Of a stretch of DNA of 40,723 nt, positions 8,105-24,384 are shown in pieces. The position numbers and the translations under genes are program-made. Positions within the stretch are counted from its first letter, which is position 1. Each line of letters starts with the position of its first letter. The notes below the pieces were generated by a model. It saw only the letters and a program-made list of their open reading frames with translations. It ran no database searches and was not told where the DNA came from. Origin of the DNA: Acidobacteriota bacterium (GTDB lineage Bacteria > Acidobacteriota > Vicinamibacteria > Vicinamibacterales > Fen-181); NCBI GenBank assembly GCA_021779795.1, contig JAJXZZ010000001.1, positions 1 to 40,723 on the forward strand, given 5' to 3'.

Positions 8105-8119
8105 CATCCCATGGACCCC

Positions 8120-8154
8120 GAGGCTCGAGGCCCAAGCTTTAGGCCTTGAGCCTC
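8120..8154. terminator. 13-bp stem / 9-nt loop hairpin in the convergent MprF / response-regulator gap
   Basis: GAGGCTCGAGGCC (8120-8132) pairs with GGCCTTGAGCCTC (8142-8154): 12 Watson-Crick pairs plus 1 G-U. There is no U-tract on either strand. Confidence 0.4.
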
Positions 8155-8178
8155 ACCTGAGCCTTGAGCCCTGAGCCC
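8147..8178. repeat. heptamer array of TGAGCCY units
   Basis: TGAGCC at 8147-8152, then TGAGCCT (8158-8164), TGAGCCC (8165-8171) and TGAGCCC (8172-8178). The array ends 2 nt from the regulator stop codon (8181-8183). Confidence 0.7.
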
Positions 8179-8180
8179 TT

Positions 8181-9539
8181 TTACTGCCCCTCTCCCTCCT
8201 TGAGGTCCAGCCCGAACCGTTCCGCCATCCGGTAGAGCGTGCGGCGGTCGATGCCCATGATCTCGGCGGCCTTCGTCCGGTTGCCGCCGACGCTCTCCAG
8301 CACGTGCAGCAGGTAGCGCCGCTCGATCTCGTCCAGCGTCGGCAGGCCGCTGAACAGGCGCTCGCCGAGGTCGGGCGGCGCGCCGAGGAAGGCCGGCGGC
8401 AGGTCGCCGGCGTCGATGACGGCGCCGCGGCTGAAGAGCACCAGGCGCTCGACCGTGTTCTCCAGCTCGCGGACGTTGCCCGGCCAGGCATAGGCGGTGA
8501 GCGCCTCGAGGGCGGCGGGCGAGAACTCCACCTGGCGGCCGGCGCGCGTGCAGGCGTTCAGGAGGAACTGGCCGACCAGCAGCGGGATGTCCGCCCGGCG
8601 CTCGCGCAGCGGCGGCACGCGGATGGAGATCACGCTCAGGCGGTAGAACAGGTCCTGGCGGAACCGCTGCTCGGCCACTTCCTTCTCGAGGTCCACGTTG
8701 GTGGCGGCCACGACGCGCACGTCCACGCGGGTGGGCCGGCCGGCGCCGACCGCCCGGAACTCCCCCTCCTCGAGCACGCGCAGGAGCTTCACCTGCAGGG
8801 CGGGCGACGTCTCGCCGATCTCGTCGAGGAAGACGGTCCCGCCGTTGGCCTGCTCGAAGATCCCCTTGGTGTCGCTCACCGCGCCGGTGAACGAGCCGCG
8901 GACGTGGCCGAACAGCTCCGACTCGAGCAGGCTCTCGGCGATGGCGCCGCAGTTGACCGGGACGAACGGCCGGGGCGCCCGGCGGCCGTGGGCGTGGACG
9001 GCGCGGGCCACCAGTTCCTTGCCCGTGCCGCTCTCGCCGACGATCAGCACCGGCACGGCGGCGTCGGCGGCGTGCGCGATCTGCTTGTAGACGGCGAGCA
9101 TGGGCGCCGTGCGCCCGAGCAGCGCGGGCGGCCGGATGTCGCGCGGCGACGCCGCCCGGGGGCCGGCCGGCGTGCCCGCCTGGACGAGCGCCCGCTCGAC
9201 GGTCGCCTTGACCTCGTTGATGTCGAACGGCTTGCTGATGTAGTCGAAGGCGCCGGCCCGGACCGCGTCGATGGCCGTCTCGAGCGTGCCGAAGCCGCTG
9301 ATGAGCAGCACCTGGCCGCGCGGGTTCGACGCCCGGAAGGCGCGCAGGATGTCGAGGCCCGACTGCTCGGCGTTCAAGTTGATGTCCGAGATCACCAGGT
9401 CGAAGGGGTGCGCCTTCACGAGGGCGAGCGCCGACGCCGGGTCGTAGGCCGACTCGATCTCGCGGCCGGGCCTGTCGAGCAGGTCCGCCATGAACCGGCA
9501 GGTCTCGCGGTCGTCGTCCACGATCAGGATTCTCGGCAT
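8181..9539 (-). CDS. sigma54-dependent Fis-family response regulator (NtrC/AtoC type)
   Basis: Real start is [10 protein letters not shown] at ATG 9539-9537; the track ORF 8181..10694 reads through into the kinase region. Receiver domain (DLVISDINL), AAA+ sigma54-interaction module ([27 protein letters not shown]) and C-terminal Fis-type HTH ([20 protein letters not shown]). 452 aa. Confidence 0.92.
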
Positions 9540-9553
9540 AGCGTCCCTGCGGC

Positions 9554-11140
9554 CTACGCGCCGCGCTCCTCGGCGGCCCCGGGATCGGGCGCCCCGGGCA
9601 GGTCGATCGTGAACACCGATCCGACGCCGACCTCGCTCCTGGCCGAGATCGTGCCGCCGTGGCCGGCCAGCACGTCGCGCGTGATGCTCAGGCCGAGGCC
9701 CGTGCCGCGGCCGGCCTGCTTGGTGGTCACCCACGGCTCGAAGATCCGCGGCAGCAGGTCGGGGGCGATCCCCGTCCCGGTGTCGGCCACCTCGATCCGG
9801 GCGCGGCCGTGGCCGCCCGGCGCGAGCGAGATGGTGATCGCGCCGCCCGCCGGCATGGCGTCGAGGCTGTTGGTGACGAGGTTGAGCAGCGCCAGCTCGA
9901 GCTGCACGGGGTCGGCCATGACCGCCGGCGCGTCGGCAATCTCGAGGTCGAGCCTGACGCCGACGGCGTCGAGCTTGGGGCGCGCGACGTCGCACACGCG
10001 CCGCAGCAGCTCGGCCAGGTCGGTGCGCTCCTTCGGCATCGGCCGCCGGGCGTGGTCGAGCATCGCCCGCACGACCGAGGTGACCTTGGCGATCTGCTCC
10101 TGCACGATCTCGAGCCGCCGCCCGGCGCGGGGGCCGGTGTCCTCGTCCTCGCGGATCATCTGCACGTAGCCCGAGATGAGGTTCAGCGGCGTGCCGACCT
10201 GGTGGGCCACGCTGGCGGCCATCTGGCCGACGGCCGCCATCTGCTCGGCGCGCGCCAGCGCCTCGCGCAGCGCGAACACGCGCCCGTAGCTGTCCACGAG
10301 CTGCTCGTTCTTGGCGCGCAGCTCCGACGTGGCGTCCCCGATGCGCTCCTGCAGGGAGGCGTTGACCTCCTGCAGCTCGGCGAGCATCTCGTTGAGGCCG
10401 CGGGCCACGGCGCCGATCTCGTCCTCGCGCAGCACCGGCGCGCGGACGGCGAGGTCCCGCGCCTGGGCGCGCTGCATCGTCCTGCGGATCGCGCCGATCG
10501 GCTGGTGCACCAGCCGCCGCATCAGCAGATCGACCGCGACGGTCATCAGGATGACGGCCGCCGGCACGAACCAGAGCACGACGCTCCGGCCCTGGCGGCG
10601 CAGCTCCTGGACCGATCCGAGCGAGTAGGCCACGACCACCGCGCCCCAGACCCGCCCGTCGCGCTTGACCGGCACGCCCACCAGCCTGATCCACTGGCGC
10701 GGCGCCGACGTCACCACGTCGTTGCGCGCGCTCGCCGCGCGCGCCAGCGCCAGCGAGTCCCGGCCTTCCGTCGACGAGGTGCTCGCCACGACCGCCGGCG
10801 TGTCGTTGTCCACGCTGGCCAGCAGGATCGAGCGGATCGACGGCACGGCGTTGGCGAACTCGCGCAGCATGTCGTTCAGGTCGCCGCGGCGCGCCGGCTC
10901 GTCGCCGATCTCGATGTCGTCCGCCACGGCCTGGCCGGTCGACTGGGCCTCGTCCAGCAGGTCGGCCGTGATCGTCACCTCGAACACCCGCAGTTCCCAG
11001 TAGCCCGCCGCGCCGATGACGCTCGACAGGACGAGGGCCACGAGCAGGGGAAGCCGCACGCGCAGCGACACGAACAAGTTCGCCACGCTGGGGCGCGATT
11101 GCCGGGGAGCCGCCTGGAGTTCAGGTCCGGGAGTCGTCAT
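9554..11140 (-). CDS. sensor histidine kinase (two TM segments, extracytoplasmic sensor, HAMP, HisKA, HATPase_c)
   Basis: Start trimmed to ATG 11140 (MTTPGPELQ...), in frame with track ORF 9554..11722. TM helices LPLLVALVLSSVIGAAGYW and VVLWFVPAAVILMTVAVDLLM, H-box ASVAHQVGTPLNLISGY and G-box GTGLGLSITRDV. The stop lies 14 nt upstream of the regulator start, so the two genes form an operon. Confidence 0.9.
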   Translation of the reverse strand: MTTPGPELQAAPRQSRPSVANLFVSLRVRLPLLVALVLSSVIGAAGYWELRVFEVTITADLLDEAQSTGQAVADDIEIGDEPARRGDLNDMLREFANAVPSIRSILLASVDNDTPAVVASTSSTEGRDSLALARAASARNDVVTSAPRQWIRLVGVPVKRDGRVWGAVVVAYSLGSVQELRRQGRSVVLWFVPAAVILMTVAVDLLMRRLVHQPIGAIRRTMQRAQARDLAVRAPVLREDEIGAVARGLNEMLAELQEVNASLQERIGDATSELRAKNEQLVDSYGRVFALREALARAEQMAAVGQMAASVAHQVGTPLNLISGYVQMIREDEDTGPRAGRRLEIVQEQIAKVTSVVRAMLDHARRPMPKERTDLAELLRRVCDVARPKLDAVGVRLDLEIADAPAVMADPVQLELALLNLVTNSLDAMPAGGAITISLAPGGHGRARIEVADTGTGIAPDLLPRIFEPWVTTKQAGRGTGLGLSITRDVLAGHGGTISARSEVGVGSVFTIDLPGAPDPGAAEERGA

Positions 11141-11193
11141 GTAAGTCCCGTGGCAAGAATAATTTACAACATCGTCGGCGCCCGTGGCCAGCC

Positions 11194-11209
11194 TGGTACG
11201 TGCTTTGTG
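11194..11209 (+). promoter_or_regulatory. sigma54-like -24/-12 element (degenerate)
   Basis: TGGTACG-tgct-TTGTG compared with the consensus TGGCACG-N4-TTGCW. GG and the TTG are at correct spacing, but C is replaced by T at both the -24 C and the -12 C. It lies 73 nt upstream of the small secreted-protein gene and is divergent from the kinase/NtrC-type operon. Confidence 0.25.
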
Positions 11210-11281
11210 AGTGCAAACCTCGTCGCCGCGCGGTCGCGCGGCCGGAACCAACGACTCGCTTCCATCCCTGGAGGATTTCGC

Positions 11282-11698
11282 ATGCGCCGTGTTGTCACCG
11301 CTCTCACCGTCGTCGTCGCCGTGGCCGCGTTCGGCTCGCTGGCCCTCGCGCAGACGCCGGCCGCCAAGACTGCCGCCAAGGCCCACACCGCGGTCGTGAA
11401 GACCGTCAAGACCGCCAAGACGATGTCGGCCATCGGCACCGTCGCGTCGTTCGACGAAGCGACCCGGATGCTGATGCTCAAGACCAGGGCGGGCGAGAAG
11501 GCGTTCACGCTCACCCCCGACGCCAAGCTGATGGCCGGCGCCAAGGCCGCCATGACGGCCGACCTGGTGGGCAAGCACGCCAAGGTGACCTACACCGAGG
11601 TGGAGGGCAAGAACGTCGCGTCGCACGTGGCCGTGGCGGTCGCGAGGAAGACCGAGGCGAAGAAGGCCGAGACGAAAGAACCGGCCGCCAAGAAGTAG
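11282..11698 (+). CDS. small secreted Lys/Ala-rich protein, function unknown
   Basis: C-terminal part of track ORF 9659..11698, starting at ATG 11282. Clear signal peptide MRRVVTALTVVVAVAAFGSLALAQ, followed by a mature domain of about 115 aa with a KKAETKEPAAKK tail. Confidence 0.7.
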   Translation: MRRVVTALTVVVAVAAFGSLALAQTPAAKTAAKAHTAVVKTVKTAKTMSAIGTVASFDEATRMLMLKTRAGEKAFTLTPDAKLMAGAKAAMTADLVGKHAKVTYTEVEGKNVASHVAVAVARKTEAKKAETKEPAAKK

Positions 11699-11860
11699 CC
11701 TGGCCCGATCCTGTCGTTCCACGGTCCTCGGGCCGGCCTCCGGAGAGGATGCCAGCCGGCCTCCGCCAGGCGGCGGGGGCCGGCCGCTCGTTCCCGCCCG
11801 GGACGACGCACTCGAGGCCCCCTCCCGCCGAAGGGGCGCGCCCGGCGTGCCCCCCGCATT

Positions 11861-11871
11861 TGTGCTAGATT
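11861..11871 (+). promoter_or_regulatory. extended -10 promoter TGTGCTAGATT; probably a leaderless transcript of the ACT gene
   Basis: TG-C-TAGATT ends 6 nt before the ATG at 11878 and no Shine-Dalgarno is present. The same TGTGCTAGA core recurs at 15991. Confidence 0.35.
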
Positions 11872-11877
11872 TCCTGA

Positions 11878-12261
11878 ATGGCCATTCGCACCGAACTCAC
11901 GCTTCGCCTGCAGAACAGCCCGGGCATGCTCGCCAAGGTCTGCCAGGCGATCGCCGAGGAACACATCAACATCGTCGCCATCAACCTGGCGACCCCCCTG
12001 ATGGTGCGGATCCTCGTGGACAACCCGACGCACGCGGCGGGCGTCCTGCGCGGGCGGCACTACCACGTCGAGGAGCGCGACGTGATCTACACGACGGCGC
12101 CGAACGACCCGGGCGCGCTGCTGCGCGTCACGCGCCTCATCGCCGAGGCGGGCATCAACATGGAGTATCTCTACGCGACGGCCATCGAGGGACAGGCGAT
12201 GGCGAGCGTGGTGGTGGGGGTGCCGGACGCGGAGCGCGCGGCGACGGCCGCGGGGTTGTGA
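11878..12261 (+). CDS. ACT domain-containing protein (tandem ACT-like halves)
   Basis: 127-aa track ORF. There are two beta-alpha-beta-beta-alpha-beta-like halves with GMLAKVCQAIAEEHINIVAINL and GALLRVTRLIAEAGINMEYLYA, typical of stand-alone ACT proteins. Confidence 0.75.
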   Translation: MAIRTELTLRLQNSPGMLAKVCQAIAEEHINIVAINLATPLMVRILVDNPTHAAGVLRGRHYHVEERDVIYTTAPNDPGALLRVTRLIAEAGINMEYLYATAIEGQAMASVVVGVPDAERAATAAGL

Positions 12262-12264
12262 GCG

Positions 12265-12294
12265 GAAGGCCGGCCCTCGACGGGGCCGGCCTTC
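12265..12294. terminator. perfect 12-bp GC hairpin between convergent ACT and OmpA genes (bidirectional terminator candidate)
   Basis: GAAGGCCGGCCC (12265-12276), loop tcgacg, GGGCCGGCCTTC (12283-12294). No U-tract. Confidence 0.5.
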
Positions 12295-12315
12295 GCCCAG
12301 AGACGATCGTGCGGC

Positions 12316-12978
12316 CTACTTCAGCACGTTGATGACGACGCGCCGGTTCTGCGCGCGGCCGTCGCGGGTCGTGTTCGGCGCAACCGGGTTCTCGGCGCCG
12401 TAGCTGTAGACGCTCATCCGGAACAGCGGGATGTGGTGCTGCTGGTAGATGTAGTTCCGGACGGCCTCGGCGCGCTCGAGCCCCAGCTTCTGGTTGTAGG
12501 CGGCGGACCCGACGTTGTCGGTGTAGCCGTCGATCTCGAGGTAGTTGCCCTCCGGGTTGGAGAGCAGCTGCTGGATGAACTGGTCGATCTTGGCCTTCGC
12601 CGCGTCGGGCAGGACCGCGGAGTTGAACTTGAAGTTCCCCTGGTCCTCGCTGAGCGTCACCTGGTAGAGGATCCGCTTCGACGCCTTGTCGAGCGCGTCG
12701 GCCTTGTTCATCGCGGTGTCGGCCGTCGTGCGGGCACCGGTCGCGGCCGTGTTGGCCGCCGCTGCGCGCTGGTCGACCTGGGCGATCTTCTGGTTCGCCT
12801 CGTTGATCGCGGCGGTGTTCTGCTTGGTCTGCTGCTGGGTCTCCTCGAGCGACTTGGAAACCGCCTCGACCTTGTCGTTGACCTCGCCCACGCGCTGCTT
12901 GACGAAGTTCTTCGTCGCGCACGCGGTGGACCCGGCTGCCAGCGCGGCCATGGAAACGGCCACAACGAACATTCTCAT
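12316..12978 (-). CDS. OmpA-family lipoprotein with an N-terminal coiled-coil region
   Basis: Start trimmed to ATG 12978 (MRMFVVAVSMAALAAGSTAC, a lipobox), with AAGGAGG 6 nt upstream. Gln/Ala/Lys/Asn-rich helical region. The C-terminal OmpA_C domain carries EIDGYTDNVGSAAYNQKLGLERAEAV and RAQNRRVVINV. Confidence 0.9.
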   Translation of the reverse strand: MRMFVVAVSMAALAAGSTACATKNFVKQRVGEVNDKVEAVSKSLEETQQQTKQNTAAINEANQKIAQVDQRAAAANTAATGARTTADTAMNKADALDKASKRILYQVTLSEDQGNFKFNSAVLPDAAKAKIDQFIQQLLSNPEGNYLEIDGYTDNVGSAAYNQKLGLERAEAVRNYIYQQHHIPLFRMSVYSYGAENPVAPNTTRDGRAQNRRVVINVLK

Positions 12979-12991
12979 AACCTGCCTCCTT

Positions 12992-13969
12992 TTAGTGCTC
13001 ACGGTCGTCTTGTGTAAGAGTAACCTGTCGAGCCTGTCCTGCAAAGTAGCCGCTTCGCGAACGCACCTGCAGGCGGCGGTCGTCGGTCCGCACCTCGAGC
13101 TGGTGCCAGCCGGGCCTGAAGCCCGGCTCGAAGGCGATGAGGTACTGGTGCCGCAGCTCGGCCACCATCTCCCGCACCGCCGCGGCCGACTCGTCCGGCA
13201 CGCTCGCGATGAAGCTCCGGCCGCCCGTCCACCGGGCCAGGTCGGCCAGGTTGCCGACCGGAACCGGGTGCGCCGTCTTGACGGCCGTGGCGGCGCCGGG
13301 CCGGTCGAGCGGCGACATCACCGCCACGATGTACACCGGCACGTCGATCGACGAGGCGATGCCCGACACCTGGGCCGGCGTGAGCCGGCTGTTGTTGTCG
13401 AGGCCGTCGGTGAAGACGATCACCGCCCGGTGGGCGTTGGGCCGGGCGGCCACGTCCCTGGCGGTCGCGGCGATCGCGTCGTTCAGCGACGTCATGCCGT
13501 AGGGCTTGATGCCGACGAGCGAGCGCTCGAACGCCGCATCCTGCCGGTAGATTTCGAACGGCTGGACCTGGTGGAGCTCGGTGTCGAACGAGTACACGGC
13601 CAGTTCGTCGCGCCCGGCCTGGAGCGTCCAGAGGAAGCTGCGGGCGATGGCGCGCGCCCGGTCGAGCTTTGAGGCCAACTGCATGCTGCCGCTCGCGTCG
13701 AACAGGAGCGCCACGCTCACCGGCGCCTCCTCGGCCCGGAACTCCTTGATCGGGCGCCAGGCCCCCCCATCGACGACGTAGAAATCGCTGCGCTTGAGGT
13801 TGGTCACGACCTTGCCGTGCTGGTCGCGAACGACGGCGCTCACCGTGACCAGGTCCACGCCAGACCTGAACGTGAGCGTGCCAGACCCCGACCCGTCGGG
13901 GACCTGCCCCGCAGCCGTGTGGCTCGACAACCACAGGAGCACGATCAGGCCGGCAGTCAGGCGGCGCAT
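12992..13969 (-). CDS. VWA domain-containing protein (acidobacterial VWFA-related type)
   Basis: Signal peptide MRRLTAGLIVLLWLSSHTAAGQ. N-terminal domain LTFRSGVDLVTVSAVVRDQHGKVVTNLKRSDFYV, followed by VWA MIDAS-like LLFDASGSM. Start chosen at ATG 13969; GTG 14017 and ATG 13990 are alternatives. The stop lies 13 nt upstream of the OmpA gene start, so the two genes form an operon. Confidence 0.85.
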   Translation of the reverse strand: MRRLTAGLIVLLWLSSHTAAGQVPDGSGSGTLTFRSGVDLVTVSAVVRDQHGKVVTNLKRSDFYVVDGGAWRPIKEFRAEEAPVSVALLFDASGSMQLASKLDRARAIARSFLWTLQAGRDELAVYSFDTELHQVQPFEIYRQDAAFERSLVGIKPYGMTSLNDAIAATARDVAARPNAHRAVIVFTDGLDNNSRLTPAQVSGIASSIDVPVYIVAVMSPLDRPGAATAVKTAHPVPVGNLADLARWTGGRSFIASVPDESAAAVREMVAELRHQYLIAFEPGFRPGWHQLEVRTDDRRLQVRSRSGYFAGQARQVTLTQDDREH

Positions 13970-13978
13970 ACGCTGAAA

Positions 13979-13999
13979 GCTATACCACATCCCGTGCCA
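13979..13999 (-). promoter_or_regulatory. promoter-like element upstream of the VWA gene: extended -10 TGGTATAGC overlapping a TGGCACG hexamer
   Basis: The minus strand reads TGGCACGGGATGTGGTATAGC. TATAGC ends 9 nt before ATG 13969 and there is no SD. TGGCACG resembles a sigma54 -24 box, but the -12 position reads GTGG rather than TTGC. Confidence 0.25.
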
Positions 14000-14168
14000 G
14001 TTGCCTAAGCCATTCACAAAAAGTCACTTAGCGATTAGCGACGCCCCTGGGCCAGCCTGTGGGGATACCGATCGTGTAACTATTACGCTCCAATTCGTCT
14101 CCCCTTCCCTTCGCGACTCGCCGCCGTTCCATGCACAAGATGGTGTCACGACCGTGTCAGCGGAGCGA

Positions 14169-14184
14169 TGGCACAACTCTTGTT
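14169..14184 (+). promoter_or_regulatory. sigma54-like -24/-12 element upstream of the small membrane-protein gene
   Basis: TGGCACA-actc-TTGTT compared with TGGCACG-N4-TTGCW. The only core mismatch is the -12 C replaced by T. It lies 56 nt upstream of ATG 14240, in a lower-GC divergent region. Confidence 0.3.
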
Positions 14185-14239
14185 GTTCCAACGCTTTGAA
14201 GGCTCAAATCGGCCATTAAGTCAGCCGATGAGGTGACCA

Positions 14240-14575
14240 ATGGCATCTTGGCGCTGGATATTCAACCGATCCGCTGACTCTCGTTTCGGCGATGCCGTCG
14301 TGCTGGCGTTCGTCACCGTCCAGGCACTCGACGGCGTGCTGACATACGTCGGCGTCGCGATGGTCGGCCACGTGACCGAGGGCAACCCGCTTGTCGCGAG
14401 CCTGATGCAGGCCCTCGGTCCTGCCGCCGGGCTCATGTCCGCCAAGCTCGGCGCCTGCACGCTGGGCGGCATCCTGCACCTGACCGGCACGCATCGGCTC
14501 ATCGCCGTGCTGACGGCCATCTACGTCGCGGCCGCCATCCTGCCGTGGACGGCCGTCCTCGCGGCGGCCAACTAG
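14240..14575 (+). CDS. small integral membrane protein (DUF5658-like)
   Basis: 111-aa track ORF with GAGGTG 5 nt upstream. It has 3-4 hydrophobic helices and the motif DGVLTYVG...EGNPL. Confidence 0.6.
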   Translation: MASWRWIFNRSADSRFGDAVVLAFVTVQALDGVLTYVGVAMVGHVTEGNPLVASLMQALGPAAGLMSAKLGACTLGGILHLTGTHRLIAVLTAIYVAAAILPWTAVLAAAN

Positions 14576-14675
14576 CGGCCGGGCGGCGCCCGCCATCGGG
14601 CCTCCCGGCACGGCGCCGCCAGGCAAGAGCCCAGATCAGATCATCGACCTGACGGGCGCCCGGCTGTATGCCGCC

Positions 14676-15857
14676 TCACACGATCCCCAGCTCCTTGCCG
14701 ACGCGCTCGAGCGTGTCCACCGCGTACTGCAGCTCGTCCTTCGCGTGCCCGGCCGTCACGATCGTCCTGACGCGCGCCTTCCCCTTCGGCACGATCGGGA
14801 AGCCCATCCCCTGCGCGAAGACCCCCTCCTCGAACAGCCGCGCCGAGAACCGCTGCGCCAGCGCGGCGTCGCCGACGATGACCGGCGTGATCGGGCCTTC
14901 GCTGGCGCCGGTGTCGAAGCCCGTGGCGCGCAGGCCGGCCTTGAAGAACCGGGTGTTCTCCCAGAGGCGCTCGATGATGTCCGGCTCCTCGAGCAGCACG
15001 TCGAGGGCGGCGATCGAGGCGGCCATCACGGCCGGCGTGTGCGAGGTCGAGAAGATGAAAGGGCGCGCGCGCTGGCGGAGGTAGTCGATGAGCGTCCGGC
15101 TCCCGGCCACGTAGCCGCCGAGCGTGCCGATGGCCTTCGACAGCGTCCCCACCTGGACGTGCACGCGCCCGTGCATGCCGAAGTGGTCCACCGTGCCCCG
15201 CCCGTTCCGCCCGAACACGCCGCTCGCGTGGGCGTCGTCCACCATCATGATCGCGCCCGACTCCTCGGCGATCTCGCAGAGCGCCGCCACCGGGCCGAGG
15301 TCGCCGTCCATGCTGAACACGCCGTCGGTGATGAGCAGCTTGCGCTGTCCGGCCGGCAGGGCGCGCAGGATCGCGCGGGCCGCGCCGACGTCCTTGTGCG
15401 GGAACACCTTGATCGCCGCCCGGCTGAGCCGGCACCCGTCGATGATGCTGGCGTGGTTCAGCTCGTCGGAGACGACCACGTCCTCGCGCGTGAGGATCGA
15501 CGACACCGTCCCGGCGTTGGCCGTGAAGCCGCTCTGGAAGACCACGGCGGCCTCGGTCTGCTTGAACGCCGCCAGGCGCCGCTCGAGCTCCTCGTGCAGG
15601 TCCATCGTGCCGGCGATCGGGCGGACCGACCCGGTGCCGACGCCGTATCGCTCGACGGCCTCGAGCGCGCGGGCCTTGAGCTTCGGGTGCGTCGTGAGGC
15701 CGAGGTAGTTGTTGGACGAGAGGTTGACGACGCTTCGCCCGTCGAAGATGGCGCGCCCGCCCTGGGGCCCGCCGAGGACGCGGATGTCGAGGGCGGCGCC
15801 CTGCTCGCGCAGCGACTGCAGCTCGGCACCGAGGTAGCGCAGGGGATCGAAAGACAT
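14676..15857 (-). CDS. kbl: glycine C-acetyltransferase (2-amino-3-ketobutyrate CoA ligase), alpha-oxoamine synthase family
   Basis: Start trimmed to ATG 15857 (MSFDPLRYL); the longer track ORF N-terminus is translation of the heptamer array. Near-colinear with Kbl motifs: NNYLGL, VRPIAGT, SDELNHASIIDGCRL, DGVFSMDGD, VDDAHASGVFGRNGRG, PLP lysine in GTLSKAIG, PIVPKGKARVRT. 393 aa. Confidence 0.88.
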   Translation of the reverse strand: MSFDPLRYLGAELQSLREQGAALDIRVLGGPQGGRAIFDGRSVVNLSSNNYLGLTTHPKLKARALEAVERYGVGTGSVRPIAGTMDLHEELERRLAAFKQTEAAVVFQSGFTANAGTVSSILTREDVVVSDELNHASIIDGCRLSRAAIKVFPHKDVGAARAILRALPAGQRKLLITDGVFSMDGDLGPVAALCEIAEESGAIMMVDDAHASGVFGRNGRGTVDHFGMHGRVHVQVGTLSKAIGTLGGYVAGSRTLIDYLRQRARPFIFSTSHTPAVMAASIAALDVLLEEPDIIERLWENTRFFKAGLRATGFDTGASEGPITPVIVGDAALAQRFSARLFEEGVFAQGMGFPIVPKGKARVRTIVTAGHAKDELQYAVDTLERVGKELGIV

Positions 15858-15865
15858 CGTGGGCG

Positions 15866-15871
15866 AGTATA
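15866..15871 (-). promoter_or_regulatory. -10-like TATACT 8 nt upstream of the kbl ATG (leaderless-type arrangement)
   Basis: The minus strand reads cgcTATACTcgcccacgATG, with no SD. Confidence 0.3.
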
Positions 15872-15901
15872 GCGGGGAACCGTTCGCCGGCTCCAGCGCC
15901 A

Positions 15902-15985
15902 TGAGCCCTGAGCCCGGAGCCTTGAGCCCTGAGCCTTTTTCCCTGAGCCCTCTTCCCTGAGCCTTGAGCCTTGAGCCTTGAGCCT
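15902..15985. repeat. 12-unit heptanucleotide tandem array (TGAGCCY family) in the kbl / ligase divergent region
   Basis: Parses without indels as TGAGCCC TGAGCCC GGAGCCT TGAGCCC TGAGCCT TTTTCCC TGAGCCC TCTTCCC TGAGCCT TGAGCCT TGAGCCT TGAGCCT. Confidence 0.9.
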
Positions 15986-15990
15986 TTTGC

Positions 15991-16001
15991 TGTGCTAGAC
16001 T
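15991..16001 (+). promoter_or_regulatory. extended -10 promoter TGTGCTAGACT for the ligase/carrier operon
   Basis: It has the same TGTGCTAGA core as at 11861. TTGAGC (-35-like) hexamers from the heptamer array lie upstream. The ATG is at 16076. Confidence 0.35.
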
Positions 16002-16075
16002 GCCGCGACGGTCGTCCCTTGCAGCCCCCACGGTTTGGCGGTTCTGTCTTCGTCGGGGAAACCCTGGAGGCGTGT

Positions 16076-17791
16076 ATGGAACCTGCGCGGGCCAAGGCGG
16101 TCGACTATCGGCGGTTGCGGGCGGAGATCACCTGGGAGGCGGCGAAGCGGGAGCTGGGATACGTCGAGGGCGGGTCGCTGAACATCGCCGACCTCTGCAT
16201 CGACCGGCACGTCATGGCGGGACGGGGAGACAAGGTCGCGCTCGTCCACGAGAACCACGAAGGCGACCTGCGGCGGTTCACCTATCGCGACCTCATGCTG
16301 CTCACCAACGGGTGGGCGTCCTTCCTTCGCGGACTCGGCGTCAGGAACCTCGATCGCGTCTGCCTCTTCCTCGACCGCGTGCCCGAGCTGTACATCGCCT
16401 TCATGGGCATCCTCAAGATCGGCGCGGTCGTCGAGCCGCTGTTCTCGGCGTTCGGCGAGGACGCGCTGCACGCCAGGATGGAGGACAGCGCCGCCACCGC
16501 CATCATCACCGAGCGCAAGCACCTCGGGAAGGTCCGCCGCGTGCGCGAGCGGCTGCCGTCGCTCAGGACCGTGATCGTCATCGACCACGACCCGGGCGGG
16601 CGCCCGCTGCGCGAGGGCGAGGTGGCGTACCCGATGGCGGCGAACCAGCTGGTGACCTTCCCGGTCTTCCGGGCCTTCGCCGAGACGCCGAGCGTGCTGC
16701 ACTACACGAGCGGCACGACGGGCAAGCCGAAGGGGGCGATGCACGTCCACGGGAGCATCTTCGCCCAGTACCTGACCACGAAGGTCGTGCTCGACCTGCG
16801 CGACGACGACGTGTACTGGTGCACGGCCGACCCGGGATGGGTGACCGGCACGAGCTACGGGATCATCGGGCCGTGGGCGCTCGGGGCGACGCAGGTCGTG
16901 CTCGACGCGGGGTTCTCGAGCGACCGGTGGTACGAGACGATCGAAAAGCACCGCGTGACCGTGTGGTACACGGCGCCGACCGCCATCCGGATGCTGATGA
17001 AGGACGGCCTCGAGCCGGTGGCCCGGCACGATCACTCGAGCCTGCGGCACATGTGCAGCGTCGGCGAGCCGCTCAACCCCGAGGCCGTGCGCTGGGGCCG
17101 CGAGGCGTTCGGCCTCGACTTCCACGACACCTTCTGGCAGACCGAGACGGGCGCGATCATGATCACCAACCTGCCCGGGATGCCGGTCAAGCCGGGGAGC
17201 ATGGGCCGGCCGTTCCCCGCGCTCGAGGCCGCGGTGGTCGACCCGCGCAGCGGGGAGCCGATCACGACCCCGGGGCGCGTCGGCCTGATCGCCATCCGGC
17301 CGCCGTGGCCGAGCCTGATGCGGACCTACTGGAACAACACGGCCACCTACTACGGCAAGTTCCTCAACGGCTGGTACATCTGCGGCGACCAGGCGAGCCT
17401 CGACCCGGACGGCTACTTCTGGTTCTGCGGGCGCGACGACGACGTGATCAACACGGCCGGGCACCTGGTGGGCCCGTTCGAGATCGAGAGCGCGCTGCTC
17501 GAGCACGAGGCGGTGGCCGAGTCGGCCGCCATCGGCAAGCCCGACCCGGTGAACATGGAGGTGGTCAAGGTGTTCGTCGCGCTGCGCCCCGGCTACGCGC
17601 CGAGCGCGGACCTCGAGCTGAGCATCATGAACCACGTGCGCAAGCGGCTCTCGCCGCTCGCCATGCCGCAGGAGATCGCGTTCGTGGACAAGGTGCCGAA
17701 GACGCGCAGCGGCAAGATCCTGCGGCGGGTGCTCCGGGCGCAGGAACTCGGACAACCCGTCGGGGACATCAGCACGATCGACGATAATTAG
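16076..17791 (+). CDS. AMP-forming acyl-CoA synthetase of the acetyl-CoA synthetase (short AcsA-like) type
   Basis: Start trimmed to ATG 16076 (MEPARAK), with GGAGG 6 nt upstream. Motifs YTSGTTGKPKG, ADPGWVTGTSYGIIGP, YTAPTAIRML, WQTETG, and A10 motif VPKTRSGKILRR. 571 aa. Confidence 0.88.
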   Translation: MEPARAKAVDYRRLRAEITWEAAKRELGYVEGGSLNIADLCIDRHVMAGRGDKVALVHENHEGDLRRFTYRDLMLLTNGWASFLRGLGVRNLDRVCLFLDRVPELYIAFMGILKIGAVVEPLFSAFGEDALHARMEDSAATAIITERKHLGKVRRVRERLPSLRTVIVIDHDPGGRPLREGEVAYPMAANQLVTFPVFRAFAETPSVLHYTSGTTGKPKGAMHVHGSIFAQYLTTKVVLDLRDDDVYWCTADPGWVTGTSYGIIGPWALGATQVVLDAGFSSDRWYETIEKHRVTVWYTAPTAIRMLMKDGLEPVARHDHSSLRHMCSVGEPLNPEAVRWGREAFGLDFHDTFWQTETGAIMITNLPGMPVKPGSMGRPFPALEAAVVDPRSGEPITTPGRVGLIAIRPPWPSLMRTYWNNTATYYGKFLNGWYICGDQASLDPDGYFWFCGRDDDVINTAGHLVGPFEIESALLEHEAVAESAAIGKPDPVNMEVVKVFVALRPGYAPSADLELSIMNHVRKRLSPLAMPQEIAFVDKVPKTRSGKILRRVLRAQELGQPVGDISTIDDN

Positions 17792-17797
17792 AAGCGC

Positions 17798-17825
17798 GCA
17801 AGCCGCAGGCCGCCAGGCGCAAGCC
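17798..17825. repeat. 4-unit heptamer array in the ligase-carrier spacer
   Basis: GCAAGCC GCAGGCC GCCAGGC GCAAGCC. It starts 6 nt after the ligase stop and ends at the GGGAGAGG Shine-Dalgarno of the carrier gene. Confidence 0.55.
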
Positions 17826-17838
17826 GGGAGAGGATTCG

Positions 17839-18090
17839 ATGAAGGAAATGATTCTCGAGTACATCAGGAACGAATACATCGACGACGACGAGGCGGACGA
17901 GGTCACGCTCGACGAGAACACGCCGCTGATTTCGAGCGGGATCGTGGACAGCTTCAGCATGGTGAGCCTGAAGCGGTTCCTCGAGAAGAAGTACTCCATT
18001 TCGATCCCCGACGAGGAAGCGTCGCCCGAGGCGTTCAACACCGTCACGAGCATCATCGCGCTCGTGAACAGGCACGTGGCGAAGAAGTAG
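17839..18090 (+). CDS. acyl/aminoacyl carrier protein, DltC-like
   Basis: 83-aa acidic track ORF with a good SD. The phosphopantetheine-serine motif SGIVDSFSMVSL resembles the DltC motif GIIDSF. It is visibly less GC-rich than its neighbours. Confidence 0.8.
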   Translation: MKEMILEYIRNEYIDDDEADEVTLDENTPLISSGIVDSFSMVSLKRFLEKKYSISIPDEEASPEAFNTVTSIIALVNRHVAKK

Positions 18091-18103
18091 GCGGTTCGCC
18101 GTT

Positions 18104-18182
18104 GTAGTGATCAGTGGCTAGTGGTGAGTGGTCAGCAGATCACGCGTGATCCTCCAGCCACGAGCCACTGACCACTTGCGAC
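18104..18182. repeat. mirror heptamer arrays (NNAGTGG x5 facing CCACNNN x3) around a perfect 14-nt palindrome; long imperfect hairpin in a convergent gap
   Basis: GTAGTGA TCAGTGG CTAGTGG TGAGTGG TCAGCAG (18104-18138), then GATCACGCGTGATC (18138-18151), then CCACGAG CCACTGA CCACTTG (18158-18178). Pairing about the centre at 18144/18145 gives recurring 4-5-bp GTGG/CCAC blocks every 7 nt. Confidence 0.75.
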
Positions 18183-18207
18183 CACGCCGCCCTGTCCCTC
18201 GTCCCTT

Positions 18208-20097
18208 CTACTTGAGCGAGATCCTGAGCTTGTACACGTCCCCGCTCGTCGCCATCTCGAGCGGGAACTTCATCTTCTCGAACACGCGCAGCATCGCCTC
18301 GTTCTCGCGCAGCACCTCGGCCGTGAAGCCGTGCAGCCCCTGCTTGCGGGCGATCTGCGTCAGGTGGGCGAGCAGTTCGGTGCCGACGCCCTGGTTCTGG
18401 TACGCGTCGGTCACGGCGAACGCCACGTTGGCCGTCAGGCCGTCCTCCTCGATGTAGTACTCGGCCAGCCCCAAGACCGGCGAGCGCGTCCCCTCGTCGG
18501 GGCAGGCGAGGATGACCATCTCGCGCCCGTAGTCGATCGCCACGAACTCCTGCAGCCGCTCGTGAGGCATGTCGCGCCGCGGCGTCATGAACCGCCGGTA
18601 CATGCTCTGGTCGGAGAGCGAGTAGAAGAAGTCCTTGAGCGCCGGCTCGTCGCTGATCTTCACCGGCCGCAGCAGCAGGGGGAGGCCCGTCTTGGTCGTC
18701 TTGCGCGCCTCGTGGTGCTCGGGGTACTCGCCGCGCTCGCCCGGCACGAACTCCTGGTCGCCGTACACGAGGTGCAGGCGGCGGGCCTCCTCGACGAGCC
18801 GGTGCCTGAAGGCCGGGTGCGCGATGGCGATCAGGTCCATCGCCCGCTCGCGGACGTTCTTGCCGTGGATGTGGGCGATGCCGTACTCGGTGACCACGTA
18901 GTGGACGTCGCCGCGGTTCAGCGTGGCGCCGGCCCCCTCGGGCAGGAACGGCACGATGCGCGACACGGCGCCGTCCTCGGCCGTGGACTGCAGGGCGAGG
19001 ATCGACTTGCCGCCCCGGGCGAGAATGGCGCCCCGCATGAAGTCGGCCTGCCCGCCGATGCCGCTGTAGAAGGAGCGGCCGATCGACTCGGCCGTCGCCT
19101 GGCCGGTCAGGTCGATCTGCAGCGCGCTGTTGATCGCGCACATCCGTTCCTGCCGCGCGATCACGACCGGGTCGTTCGTGTAGTCGATCGTCCTGAACTC
19201 GATCGCCGGGTTGCAGTGCACGAAGTCGTACGTCTCGCGGCTGCCCATGCAGAACGAGGTCACGGCCTGGCCGCGGTCCACGGTCTTGCGCGAGTTGTCG
19301 ATCACCCCCGCGCGGATGAGGTCCACCAGGCCGTCGGTGAGCAGCTCGGTGTGGACGCCCAGGTGCTTCTTCCGTCGGAGCGCCGACATGATCGCGTTCG
19401 GCACGCTGCCGTAGCCCGCCTGGATCGTGTCGCCGTCCTCGACGATGCGCGCGACGTACCGGCCGATGCGCTCCGCGATCGCGTCCGGCACGCTGGGCCG
19501 GTACTCCAGCAGCGGCTCGTCGAACGGGACGACGTAGTCCACCTCGTCGATGTGCAGGAAGCCGTCGCCCTGCACGCGCGGCATCTGCGGGTTGACCTGC
19601 GCGATGATCAGCCGCGCGCTCGCCGCCGCCGCCTTGACGATGTCCACCGAGATGCCGAGGCTCAGGTAGCCGTGGCGATCGGGGGGCGAGGTCTGGACGA
19701 GGGCGACGTCGATCGAGAGCACCCGGCGGTTGAACAGGTCGGGGACCTGCGACAGGAAGATCGGCGTGTAGTCGGCGAGCCCCTCGTTGACGGCCGACCG
19801 GGTGTTCGGGCCGACGAAGAACGCGTTCAGGCGGAAGTTCGACTTCAGCCGCTCGTCGGTGTACGGCGCCACGCCGAGCGTCCAGACCTGGATGATCTCG
19901 GCGTCGAAGAACGCCTTGGGGTGCGCCTTGACGTAGTCGGTGAGCGCCTGCACGAGGTGCTGCGGCTCGCCGCAGGCGGTGCCGAGGAAGATCCGGTCGC
20001 CCCGCCGGACGTGGGCGAACACCTCCTCCTCGGGCGGGAACTTCTCCGGGTACCGCGCCCGGAACCGCTCCAGGTCCTCCATCCCGGTCATCGGCAT
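18208..20097 (-). CDS. acetyl-CoA hydrolase/transferase (4-hydroxybutyrate CoA-transferase-like) fused to a C-terminal Pat-type GNAT acetyltransferase domain
   Basis: 629-aa track ORF. The N-terminal ~440 aa carry GTACGEPQHLVQAL and HYVVTEYGIAHIHGKNVRERAMDLIAIAHPAFR. The C-terminal ~170 aa carry LRPVKISDEPALKDFFYSLSDQSMYRRF and NQGVGTELLAHLTQIARKQGLHGFTAEVLRENEAMLRVFEK, a GNAT core as in protein lysine acetyltransferases. Confidence 0.85.
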   Translation of the reverse strand: MPMTGMEDLERFRARYPEKFPPEEEVFAHVRRGDRIFLGTACGEPQHLVQALTDYVKAHPKAFFDAEIIQVWTLGVAPYTDERLKSNFRLNAFFVGPNTRSAVNEGLADYTPIFLSQVPDLFNRRVLSIDVALVQTSPPDRHGYLSLGISVDIVKAAAASARLIIAQVNPQMPRVQGDGFLHIDEVDYVVPFDEPLLEYRPSVPDAIAERIGRYVARIVEDGDTIQAGYGSVPNAIMSALRRKKHLGVHTELLTDGLVDLIRAGVIDNSRKTVDRGQAVTSFCMGSRETYDFVHCNPAIEFRTIDYTNDPVVIARQERMCAINSALQIDLTGQATAESIGRSFYSGIGGQADFMRGAILARGGKSILALQSTAEDGAVSRIVPFLPEGAGATLNRGDVHYVVTEYGIAHIHGKNVRERAMDLIAIAHPAFRHRLVEEARRLHLVYGDQEFVPGERGEYPEHHEARKTTKTGLPLLLRPVKISDEPALKDFFYSLSDQSMYRRFMTPRRDMPHERLQEFVAIDYGREMVILACPDEGTRSPVLGLAEYYIEEDGLTANVAFAVTDAYQNQGVGTELLAHLTQIARKQGLHGFTAEVLRENEAMLRVFEKMKFPLEMATSGDVYKLRISLK

Positions 20098-20101
20098 CGC
20101 G

Positions 20102-20133
20102 CCCGCCTCCCCGCGGCCCGCCGCGGGGGCGGG
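20102..20133 (-). promoter_or_regulatory. GC-rich 5' leader hairpin that includes the Shine-Dalgarno of the CoA-transferase::GNAT gene
   Basis: CCCGCCTCCCCGCGG / CCGCGGGGGCGGG gives 13 bp with two single-nt bulges and a 4-nt loop. On the mRNA strand the 3' arm contains GGGGAGG and ends 4 nt before the AUG at 20097. Confidence 0.3.
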
Positions 20134-20205
20134 ACCGGGTAGAATGAAGCTGGCTCATTGTACATGGTGGCGTGGGCCGACTCCATTTCAGCGTGCCGGT
20201 GAGAC

Positions 20206-21633
20206 ATGGACGCGATCGATCAATACGCCAACGACCTCCTCGGGCGGGCGACGGCGGCCGCCGAGGCGTTCCGGACGTTCGGCCAGGAGCAGGTGGACCG
20301 CGTGGTCGAGGCGGTGTACACGGCCGCCTGGAACCACCGCGTCGAGTTCGCGCGGCTCGCCTTCGAGGAGACCGGCATGGGGATCCTCGAGGACAAGATC
20401 CTCAAGAACTCGTACGCCAGCCTGCTCGTGTACGAGGACATCCGGTGCCGGCCGACCGTCGGCGTCATCAGCCAGGACCCGGTGCTCGGCGTGTGCGAGG
20501 TGGCCCAGCCGCGGGGCCCCGTGCTCGCCACCATCCCGGTGACCAACCCCACCTCGACGACGATCTTCAAGGCGCTCATCTGCATGAAGACGCGCAACCC
20601 GGTCGTCTTCAGCCCGCACCGGGGGGCGCGCAAGTGCATCCGCGAGACGTGCCGGGTGCTGGCCGAGGCGGCCGAGGCCGCCGGCGCGCCCGCCAACGCG
20701 ATCCAGTACCTCGCGCGCTCGCAGCCGGAGTACGTCGAGCGGATCATGAAGCACCGGAAGCTGGCGCTGATCCTCGCCACCGGCACCAGCTCGATCGTCC
20801 GCACCGCGCAGCAGTCGGGCACCCCCACGCTCGGCGTCGGCCCGGGCAACGTCCCGATCTACGTCCACCGGTCCGCCGACATCGAGCACGCGGCCCGCTC
20901 GATCGTCTTCTCGAAGACGTTCGACCACAGCACCATCTGCGGATCGGAGCAGGCGATCGTCGTCGAGCCGGACGTGGACCGGCGGCTCCGCCCCCTGCTG
21001 GAGCGGGCGGGGGCGGTCTTCTGCACGCCCGACCAGACGCGGGCGCTCGGCGCCGCCTGCATCGATCTCGAGCGGCGGCGGATGAAGGCGGAGATCGTGG
21101 GCCAGTCGCCGCAGGTCATCGCGGCGCGCGCCGGCTTCGCGGTCCCCGAGGGCACGCGGATCCTGGTCGGCGAGCCCGAGGGCGTCGGGCCGGCCCACCC
21201 GCTGTCGTACGAGATCCTGGCGCCGGTGCTGGCGTACTACACGGTCGGCAGCTACGAGACGGCGATCGAGACGTGCGCGGCGCTCAACCGGTGGGGCGGC
21301 GTGGGCCACACCGTGGGCGTCTACGCGAACGACGAGTCGGTGGTGGAAGACTTCGCGATGATGAACGCCGGGCGGATCCTGGTCAACACGCCGTCGAGCC
21401 AGGGGGCGATCGGGGGGACGTTCAACACGCTGAGGCCGTCGCTGACGCTCTCGTGCGGCACCGAGGCGGGCAACGTCAGCACCGACAACATCTCGACCGA
21501 CCACCTGCTGAACATCCACCGCGTGGCGCGGATGCGCCCCAACACGCGCTGGCTCGAGAAGGCGCGCGCCCGCGCCGTGGACGAGCGCGTGGACGCCGAC
21601 GAGATACGCAGGATTTACAACAGGAACTGGTAG
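20206..21633 (+). CDS. CoA-acylating aldehyde dehydrogenase (AdhE N-terminal / EutE-PduP type acetaldehyde dehydrogenase)
   Basis: 475-aa track ORF. Motifs PVTNPTST, GPGNVP, catalytic Cys in FDHSTICGSEQ, and GVGHTVGVY, colinear with acetylating aldehyde dehydrogenases. Confidence 0.85.
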   Translation: MDAIDQYANDLLGRATAAAEAFRTFGQEQVDRVVEAVYTAAWNHRVEFARLAFEETGMGILEDKILKNSYASLLVYEDIRCRPTVGVISQDPVLGVCEVAQPRGPVLATIPVTNPTSTTIFKALICMKTRNPVVFSPHRGARKCIRETCRVLAEAAEAAGAPANAIQYLARSQPEYVERIMKHRKLALILATGTSSIVRTAQQSGTPTLGVGPGNVPIYVHRSADIEHAARSIVFSKTFDHSTICGSEQAIVVEPDVDRRLRPLLERAGAVFCTPDQTRALGAACIDLERRRMKAEIVGQSPQVIAARAGFAVPEGTRILVGEPEGVGPAHPLSYEILAPVLAYYTVGSYETAIETCAALNRWGGVGHTVGVYANDESVVEDFAMMNAGRILVNTPSSQGAIGGTFNTLRPSLTLSCGTEAGNVSTDNISTDHLLNIHRVARMRPNTRWLEKARARAVDERVDADEIRRIYNRNW

Positions 21634-21662
21634 GGCGGGGACGGGAACGCCGGCAGCGGAGA

Positions 21663-21754
21663 GCGGATCACGGAGGGAGGCCGGGCAGCGGCTCGGCGGC
21701 CAGCGGACCTCCGCCGCCAGCCGCCGGATCTCCCGTCTTCGGACCGTGATCCGC
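21663..21754. repeat. 92-nt element bounded by perfect 11-nt inverted repeats
   Basis: GCGGATCACGG (21663-21673) and CCGTGATCCGC (21744-21754). The interior is partly self-complementary (GGGAG/CTCCC, CCGG/CCGG) and contains a GTC-TTCG-GAC mini-hairpin. It lies downstream of the aldehyde dehydrogenase stop. Confidence 0.5.
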
Positions 21755-21762
21755 CACCCGCT

Positions 21763-21811
21763 TACTTCGTACTTCTTACTTCGTACTTCTTACTTCGTAC
21801 TTCCTACTTCT
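21763..21811. repeat. 7-unit heptamer array of TACTTCN units
   Basis: TACTTCG TACTTCT TACTTCG TACTTCT TACTTCG TACTTCC TACTTCT. It ends 1 nt from the aconitase stop codon (21813-21815). Confidence 0.9.
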
Positions 21812-21812
21812 T

Positions 21813-24343: not shown

Positions 24344-24384
24344 GTGCGGTCAAGGACATAGGTAACAAGCTCATCCACGTTCTG

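Follow-up and report, generated by a model that had tools for sequence, protein, structure and literature searches.

Several families of heptamer units are said to share the intergenic DNA of single cyanobacterial genomes, the STRR sequences that Mazel et al. reportedly described in 1990, with the units CCCCAGT, TTGGTCA and CAACAGT. Enterobacteria carry REP/BIME elements, fixed palindromes of 20–40 nt with an associated RAYT transposase. Bacterial heptanucleotide arrays have been noted since 1990 and, in the portions of Mrazek (2007) relayed by later papers, heptanucleotides are the most abundant class of long simple sequence repeat (LSSR) in most prokaryotic genomes; polymerase slippage was proposed, and neither the preference for 7 nt nor a function is established there (PMC4679880, PMC4692102). 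Rehm et al. (2015) counted ~185 GGGAATC arrays per Xanthomonas genome, 89–93% of them intergenic, with a mean distance of 28 nt to the upstream open reading frame (ORF) and 70–75 inverted pairs; array length varies between Xcc and Xac, and the function is not established (PMC4692102). TAACTGA direct repeats occur in Beggiatoaceae, Cyanobacteria and Bacteroidetes (MacGregor 2015; PMC4679880), and a heptanucleotide repeat family has been reported in Geobacter (PMC2700814). In H. influenzae, the (ATCTTTC)n repeat of hmw1A is phase-variable, is transcribed as part of the 5'-untranslated region (5'-UTR), and determines adhesin expression by way of RNase III (PMC12721329). Here, we describe heptamer arrays in a 40,723-nt stretch of an Acidobacteriota genome (contig JAJXZZ010000001.1; the window), centred on a 12-unit TGAGCCY array between a kbl-family gene and a ligase gene (the focal array). 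We think it probable that these arrays are slippage-prone heptanucleotide microsatellites of an acidobacterial family, of which the focal copy is a near-neutral spacer of variable length.

The earlier note on this DNA had read 15902–15985 as consecutive 7-nt units, and the parse is exact, with zero indels: TGAGCCC, TGAGCCC, GGAGCCT, TGAGCCC, TGAGCCT, TTTTCCC, TGAGCCC, TCTTCCC and four copies of TGAGCCT, that is ten TGAGCCY units and the variants TTTTCCC and TCTTCCC. We searched the window with Tandem Repeats Finder (TRF) and a scan for lag-k runs (lags 4–12). TRF independently detects the focal array, at 15898–15984, and gives periods 14 and 21 scores that equal that of period 7. Like heptamer LSSRs, the array is made of head-to-tail 7-nt copies beyond the length expected by chance. 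It is unstructured when folded against shuffles (z +1.97 on the + strand, −0.51 on the − strand) and has no partner arm. The window as a whole is ~70% G+C.

We compared the window with seven other public contigs encoding the ligase protein (four ENA assemblies and three NCBI metagenome-assembled genomes, MAGs), which are 99.87–99.92% identical to it over 12–22 kb. All indels among these sister contigs are confined to two TGAGCCY arrays, the focal one and that at 8147. The focal array has 12, 11 or 5 units, and the anchored region around it measures 151, 144 or 102 nt; the 8147 region measures 81, 91, 109 or 112 nt. Step sizes are 7, 21, 28 and 49 nt. A flank difference (GCGCCA versus GCGTTA) is linked to the array alleles, so the length alleles are real haplotypes, and they are not assembly noise because arrays of ≤84 nt are spanned by single reads and by k=141 assembly words. 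An assembly artefact was likewise ruled out for the arrays themselves, which are found in seven independent assemblies and in long-read MAGs. The more degenerate arrays at 17792, 18104 and 24980 have a constant length in the sister contigs, and the 21763 array shows substitutions only, with no length change. Copy number thus changes in unit steps between strains, as in LSSRs. This is the polymorphism among sister MAGs that the earlier note had suggested looking for, and the whole-unit differences agree with its idea of a slippage-prone spacer. The focal array behaves as a slippage-prone microsatellite that gains and loses whole 7-nt units and multi-unit blocks, likely by replication slippage or by unequal recombination between units. 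Unit-step mutation is directly visible here between co-existing strains, and such arrays offer ready-made markers of the variable-number tandem repeat type for strains of uncultured soil Acidobacteriota.

Among tandem periods in the window, only period 7 is strongly over-represented. The lag-k scan found five runs for k=7 and 0–2 for each other lag from 4 to 12; 100 dinucleotide-preserving shuffles gave a mean of 0.08 k=7 runs and a maximum of 1. TRF reports period-7 arrays at 8147/8156–8179, 15898–15984, 17792–17826, 21763–21810 and 24980–25010. Placed against the gene calls of the public assemblies and those of a GC3-based caller, all window arrays are intergenic and none lies inside a called gene. 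As the earlier note had claimed, five lie close to stop codons, at measured distances of 1 nt (8181), 0 nt (17791), 13 nt (18090), 2 nt (21813) and 0 nt (25011).

To follow the family beyond the window, we scanned for the exact pattern (TGAGCCY)x4, taking one genome per species. At least 64 of the at least 119 loci so found belong to Acidobacteriota, from at least 33 genomes, several of which supply at least four to at least six separate 8-kb blocks each. Among the matches listed, the acidobacterial carriers include many long-read Microflora Danica MAGs, Luteitalea, Vicinamibacterales, Vicinamibacteraceae and some Acidobacteriaceae, Holophagae and Thermoanaerobaculia; the other matches listed come from various other phyla, for the most part as single pure arrays. 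We then took a census of 520 kb, made up of 64 acidobacterial blocks (479 kb) and the window and 86% coding. TRF arrays scoring ≥40 number 157 for period 7, compared with 0, 3, 3, 18, 4 and 2 for periods 5, 6, 8, 9, 10 and 11 and 27, mostly within genes, for period 12. The acidobacterial blocks hold 152 of the period-7 arrays, and because 58 of these have units other than the search unit, ascertainment does not account for the preference for period 7. A set of 781 kb selected solely through the ligase protein contains 15 period-7 and 9 period-14 arrays (score ≥50) and at most 4 for each of periods 4–6, 8–11 and 13, the period-7 arrays being concentrated in the closest relatives.

The 157 census arrays avoid genes: 146 (~93%) lie outside them and 11 within. 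From the upstream stop codon to the array the median distance is 7.5 nt (interquartile range 0–56), and the gap from array to downstream start is ~60 nt. Spacers between convergent genes carry 2.6 arrays per kb, tandem spacers 1.6 and divergent spacers 0.9. Period 7 stands above the neighbouring non-triplet periods and the arrays are predominantly non-coding, both as in LSSRs. Many Acidobacteriota carry the YTGAGCC/GGCTCAR family, spread over their non-coding DNA, and the dispersed, multi-family, intergenic period-7 system that the earlier note had proposed is found on this larger scale.

The acidobacterial arrays share with heptanucleotide LSSRs a dominant non-triplet period of 7 nt, a non-coding location, a sporadic phylogenetic spread and the slippage proposed for them in the parts of the source work quoted in PMC4679880 and PMC4692102; they differ in lineage and in the unit YTGAGCC, for neither of which the literature open to searching yielded a description. 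Our literature searches returned no description of heptamer arrays in Acidobacteria or of TGAGCCY, the repeat strings matching irrelevant eukaryotic papers only. The earlier note had taken the cyanobacterial STRR as its only precedent for a new acidobacterial system; the lineage does appear to be new, but an excess of heptanucleotide repeats is widely documented (PMC4679880, PMC4692102, PMC2700814). The arrays are thus a known, functionally unexplained kind of bacterial repeat in a new lineage with a new unit, which adds a large and environmentally dominant phylum to the carriers. With the GGGAATC arrays of Xanthomonas and the GGGGAYT arrays of Nostoc they have in common that ~90% are intergenic, that they lie nearer the upstream ORF end and that many form inverted pairs, as well as a modal length of ~4 units, differences in length and sequence from one close relative to another, and under-representation between divergent genes (PMC4692102). 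They differ in a unit that is only partly G3-bearing, in the fixed polarity of their arms and, in some genomes, in a conserved inner stem; the focal copy also occupies the rarer divergent-promoter context. One heptamer at many intergenic loci, shared by unrelated phyla and containing stop triplets, is likewise a feature of the TAACTGA repeats, but those lie just upstream of start codons and almost never form inverted pairs, whereas the acidobacterial arrays mainly follow stops and ~40% are paired (PMC4679880). Several intergenic heptamer families per genome also recall the cyanobacterial STRR. The phylum differs, the closest named relative of the window being an Acidobacteriota MAG, and so do the units (TGAGCCY, TACTTCN, GTCAGCC, GCAAGCC and NNAGTGG in the window), so the arrays are not STRR in the strict sense.

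Unit composition also bears on the idea that the arrays act as G-quadruplex (G4) or i-motif elements, since (GGGCTCA)n is a G3N4 motif like those examined in Xanthomonas and Nostoc. Opposite CTGAGCC units, the complementary strand does carry G3 tracts joined by 4-nt loops, the relatives commonly have pure (GGGCTCA)n arrays, and GGGAATC oligonucleotides form G4 in vitro (PMC4692102). However, the four promoter-proximal focal units are TGAGCCT and offer only GG, the six C3 tracts of the focal array are separated by loops of 4, 11, 11, 4 and 4 nt, and the other window units (TACTTCN, GCAAGCC and AGTGG-type) lack G-tracts. No regulatory role for such arrays emerged from the work of Rehm et al. (PMC4692102). 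We regard a G4 or i-motif function as very unlikely.

The focal array lies between two core promoters. Directly downstream of it, the TGTGCTAGACT extended −10 that the earlier note had pointed out is conserved: GTGCTAGACT (TG-n-TAGACT, 15993–16001) is invariant in the window and in the relatives L014, L127, L130 and L135, within an alignment that is 51% identical around it. On the other side, TATACT (15871–15866) is the probable −10 of the kbl-family gene, a promoter predicted from its block GAGTATAGCGGGGAAC, which is kept in L014 and reads AGTATAG in L130. Because it lies upstream of both −10 elements, the focal array is most likely not transcribed. The phased TTGAGC hexamers that had been proposed as −35 elements could not be upheld: they lie 12 and 19 nt from TAGACT, not 16–18, they are not conserved in L014, L127 or L130, and a promoter scan found no sigma-70-type site at their location. 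The flanking genes, for a BioF/Kbl acyltransferase and an acetate-CoA-ligase-like enzyme (Pfam and NCBIfam support), are metabolic and not contingency-type. The focal array resembles the hmw1A repeat as a heptamer simple sequence repeat near a promoter with changing copy number, and the hmw repeats form one arm of a long hairpin (PMC12721329). It differs in having no partner arm, and its place upstream of both −10 elements and beside metabolic genes sets it apart from phase-variation (contingency) repeats.

L014 (CAVQXT010000003.1), from an Acidobacteriota MAG, is an orthologue of the kbl–ligase region with 86–87% nucleotide identity in both genes and shared synteny. Its array stands directly upstream of the same GCTGTGCTAGACT motif as in the window and has ~17 TGAGCCN units interspersed with GTCCTTCCC (YCTTCCC) variants that match the TCTTCCC and TTTTCCC of the window. 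The focal array is therefore inherited and not a one-off. L127 has a different upstream gene and no array and keeps the −10. In L130 the two −10 motifs are ~16 nt apart without an array, a comparison weakened because the identity of its truncated upstream gene is only probable. The absence of the array in L130 and L127 indicates that it is dispensable for both promoters. The focal copy would thus be a variable-length DNA spacer between two divergent promoters that seemingly stand back to back without it in one relative. We consider its fitness effect to be close to neutral, or at most a tuning of promoter interference.

The same comparison bears on the proposal that the array provides periodic protein-binding sites (three units make 21 bp, two helical turns) or acts as a copy-number rheostat of the kbl and ligase promoters. 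In its favour, one unit is reused across many loci, the array is retained beside the same −10 element in L014, TRF scores the longer periods as highly as period 7, and heptamer copy number does set expression upstream of H. influenzae hmw1A (PMC12721329). No count is conserved, however, with 5 to 12 units among 99.9%-identical strains and >17 in L014; L127 and L130 conserve the −10 yet lack the array; whereas the hmw repeat belongs to a 5'-UTR, the focal array stands upstream of the two −10 elements; units differ at orthologous sites; and the neighbouring genes are not of the contingency type. We find such a role quite unlikely.

A second orthologous site shows how units are replaced. In the spacer between the ligase stop and the acyl carrier protein (ACP) gene, close relatives carry different arrays, pairs or hairpins (table 1), and the L132 unit is present at three sites within 4 kb. 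A hairpin or period-7 array thus recurs at the ligase–ACP site, each genome favouring its own units, so that the position and period of an array persist at an orthologous site while its unit sequence turns over. Judged from these alignments, solo arrays can be surviving half-pairs.

Table 1. Coordinates of the focal array, other features of the window and related elements at orthologous or paired sites in relatives.
Feature	Genome or contig	Position	Strand	Description
Focal array	window	15902–15985		12 heptamers, solo, between two divergent core promoters
TGTGCTAGACT extended −10, ligase promoter	window	15991–16001	+	TG 15993–15994, TAGACT 15996–16001; directly downstream of focal array
TATACT, probable −10 of kbl-family gene	window	15866–15871	−	8 nt before ATG (15857–15855); focal array upstream
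Asymmetric hairpin element	window	8120–8179		short left arm GAGGCTCGAGGCC, loop, right arm of TGAGCCY units
TTAGCGA x2	window	14028–14041		two copies, not significant; stem of terminator-like hairpin with T-run, − strand (14042–14023)
GCAAGCC-like x4.9 solo array	window	17792–17826	+	between ligase stop and ribosome-binding site of ACP gene
Inverted pair	window	18104–18178		NNAGTGG x5 (18104–18138) facing CCACNNN x3 (18158–18178)
TACTTCN x7 solo array	window	21763–21811		TRF score 75; ends 2 nt from aconitase stop (21813)
Two TGAGCCT units, focal-array family	window	24330–24343		too short for significance alone; invariant in sister contigs
GTCAGCC x4.4 array	window	24980–25010		abuts stop of 25011–25766(−) gene
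Ligase-stop/ACP spacer	window			GCAAGCC-like x4, solo
Ligase-stop/ACP spacer	L127			inverted pair, right arm homologous to 17792 array of window
Ligase-stop/ACP spacer	L128			AAGAYAG x8
Ligase-stop/ACP spacer	L130			GGATTCA/GAATCC pair
Ligase-stop/ACP spacer	L132			AGTAGTC/GACTACT pair
Ligase-stop/ACP spacer	L129, L131, L133			ordinary GC hairpins
Ligase-stop/ACP spacer	more distant relatives			spacer absent
Inner-stem element	L011	2248–2340
Inner-stem element	L013	3300–3388
Inner-stem element	L017	91–181
Inner-stem element	L022	3243–3333
Inner-stem element	L025	6398–6492
Inner-stem element	L037	5796–5882
Inner-stem element	L041	6226–6337
Inner-stem element	L047	3226–3327
Inner-stem element	L064	~2486–2560
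Inner-stem element	L076	1301–1397
Inner-stem element	L101	5695–5784

The orientation of arrays near stop codons speaks to their position after genes. The earlier note had suggested frame-independent translation barriers, or in effect back-up stop codons: TGAGCCY gives TGA in all three frames within three units, and in 10 arrays of relatives the upstream ORF ends inside a TGAGCCY-oriented array, which supplies the stop. Yet arrays 0–20 nt past a stop read, on the coding strand, as the stop-free RGGCTCA in 30 cases and as TGAGCCY in 2, the TGAGCCY-oriented arrays either overlapping the ORF end (the 10 cases above) or sitting 21–60 nt away. Solo-array orientation overall is balanced, 20 versus 17. 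Moreover, 17 of 20 stop-adjacent arrays of other units contain no stop in any frame, the known heptamer families GGGAATC and CCCCAGT contain none, and the focal array lies between diverging genes, where there is no translation to block. A barrier function is thus hardly credible. Proximity to stop codons is better explained by expansion of arrays until they meet coding constraint, 3' gaps being the least constrained space; period-7 arrays occupy gaps left free by selection, most often beginning a few nucleotides past a stop codon.

Many arrays face a complementary partner. Inverted pairs include 67 of the 157 strong period-7 arrays (~40%), with 39 pairs at score ≥30. They form long, near-perfect hairpins whose folding energies range from −31 to −108 kcal/mol and mostly reach −45 or beyond. 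All 21 of 21 TGAGCC-family pairs share the polarity (GGCTCAR)n–loop–(YTGAGCC)n, and a conserved inner stem GGCAAGATCTTCGAG–loop–CTCGAAGGTTTTGCC, with two heptamers per side and containing AGATCT, is common to paired TGAGCCY elements from at least five Acidobacteriota MAGs. The same paired architecture is built from other units: GGTTCAG, AATGCTG, AGCTTCC, CGGTTTT and GGGATTC. Mirrored R/Y variants between arms form Watson–Crick pairs at 29 of 51 positions versus 23.3 ± 2.6 in shuffles (54 of 2000 shuffles as high), a weak and register-dependent signal on which we do not rely.

The earlier note had also proposed 3'-end or terminator structures where complementary units face each other. Facing arrays do form hairpins, but they are not canonical terminators: T-runs follow none of the heptamer hairpins in the window and none of the right arms in relatives, and we rejected intrinsic (Rho-independent) termination on this ground. 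Among 11 terminator-like sites in 7900–25200, only 14042–14023 touches a listed repeat, the two-copy TTAGCGA. At the transcript level, the hairpins probably serve as stem-loops at 3' ends or between cistrons, where they might block exonucleases or be targets of double-strand RNases. A mechanism of this RNA-level kind exists in the RNase III-cut hmw hairpin, which is built on heptamers (PMC12721329). We also tried the G.U-versus-A.C asymmetry of the inner stem as a sign of RNA-level orientation following the upstream gene; it was mixed, 2 versus 3 informative cases, and gave no support.

Fixed polarity and a shared inner stem raise the alternative that TGAGCCY arrays are arms of a self-propagating REP- or MITE-like hairpin element, the solo arrays being amplified remnants of right arms. 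The inner-stem paired elements (table 1) do look like a REP- or MITE-like family, and the TCTTCCC and GTCCTTCCC units of the focal and L014 arrays resemble the junction between inner stem and right arm, CTCTTSCC-TGAGCC. The 17792 array of the window is the surviving right arm of a pair still present in L127. Where the window has 15858–16075, L014 (1560–3130) holds a 1.3-kb cassette flanked on each side by a direct copy of (GATCCCY)n(TGAGCCY)n. The cassette has a PIN/VapC-like gene and an antitoxin-like gene (a VapBC-like pair) together with a small YhbY-like gene, and the array may be a hot spot of insertion or recombination. Capture of the heptamer array as a CRISPR spacer and its presence in viral contigs, both described below, also fit mobility. 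On the other hand, we saw no target-site duplications, transposase or RAYT gene. In the window, a fuzzy search found no array-associated copy of the inner stem, two mismatches being too permissive because they match coding sequence. Unrelated units at orthologous sites suggest origin in situ over insertion, and the inner stem occurs in either orientation with respect to its flanking genes. REP/BIME elements are comparable in that they are palindromes scattered over intergenic DNA, at the 3' ends of genes and in convergent spacers, with proposed mRNA-stabilising roles, but REPs are not composed of variable tandem heptamers. We judge a self-propagating element unlikely, though worth keeping in mind.

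Several points weigh against the slippage-prone microsatellite with a near-neutral focal copy. The array persisted or re-formed at the same promoter in two lineages ~14% diverged, which could indicate function. The relatives' loci from the (TGAGCCY)x4 scan were picked by the repeat itself, 'genome-wide' stands for the 40.7-kb window and its relatives, and we infer both the neutral spacer and the RNA stem-loop. Simple slippage also leaves unexplained the preference for 7 nt, the recurrence of one unit at many loci and the common polarity of the TGAGCC-family pairs. Together, the 7-nt preference, the reuse of units and the 21:0 polarity leave modest room for a dedicated propagation mechanism. 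Heptamer-armed hairpins could then form a distinct, actively propagating intergenic class, with arms built and homogenised by a dedicated 7-nt-step process (hairpin-templated or enzyme-driven) in place of generic slippage, and with solo arrays such as the focal one as amplified half-elements. We give this little credence; if true, it would explain how a period-7 array or hairpin is kept at orthologous sites while its unit is replaced.

Eight listed repeat loci lie in the window (table 1). From the list in the earlier note, the mirrored arms at 18104 and 18158 and the units at 24330–24343 are present, but the 8147 array is interrupted by a 4-nt irregularity, TCAC, and is clean only from 8156, and the TTAGCGA copies are not significant. 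The element at 8120–8179 fills the gap between convergent genes with stops at 8104 and 8181 and folds at −43.6 kcal/mol (z −4.8, − strand). Between the convergent stops at 18090 and 18208, the hairpin at 18104–18178 folds at −51.9 kcal/mol (z −4.46) on the + strand and −49.3 (z −2.75) on the − strand. The solo array at 17792–17826 (fold z +1.56) and the array portion at 21763 are unstructured. An Rfam scan of the whole window gave 0 matches at gathering score. The spacer of the GTCAGCC array also holds a period-20 repeat, AAGCCTCCCCCCGACCGATG x2.3, at 24908–24953, upstream of the 24385–24843(−) gene.

In other phyla, the CTGAGCC array can abut a second, unrelated heptamer array: GGTCGAA in Phormidium (L043:~4197–4240), TTTCCGG in Wenzhouxiangella (L059:~3077–3116), CTCTCAC in Bacteroidales (L063:~6600–6633) and ATAGGGC in Microbacterium (L046:~1760–1785). 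Composite multi-unit heptamer arrays seem common. A CRISPR array in a Candidatus Rariloculaceae MAG (OZ253541.1, L122:1430–1461) has 29-nt repeats GGTCTATCCCCGCCCATGCGGGGAAACC and 32-nt spacers, and its spacer GCGGCTCAGGGCTCAGGGCTCAGGGCTCAGTC is (GGCTCAG)x4, a heptamer array captured as a CRISPR spacer. Eleven IMG/VR viral contigs (L207–L217) carry (TGAGCCY)x4.

Heptamer arrays break short-read contigs, one MAG contig (L007) ending inside the focal array, and can mislead gene callers. In three public assemblies (L001, L002 and L003, 8601–9827), the kbl-family gene is called with 408 aa, not 393 aa (window 15858–15905); the ORF is over-extended to ~15902, the first base of the focal array, because the RGGCTCA strand is free of stop codons. 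The surrounding genes (14676–20154) encode a BioF/Kbl-family acyltransferase dependent on PLP, an acetate-CoA-ligase-like AMP-binding enzyme, a small ACP with a weak match to an ornithine-lipid ACP model, and a CoA-transferase fused to a GNAT acetyltransferase. They may form an acyl-amino-acid or lipid pathway and not simple threonine catabolism, and the ligase–ACP pairing is kept in relatives down to ~60% identity. Finally, GGCTCAG, the focal unit on the − strand, is identical to the universally conserved 16S rRNA positions 21–27, the 3' end of the 27F primer, which is most likely a coincidence.

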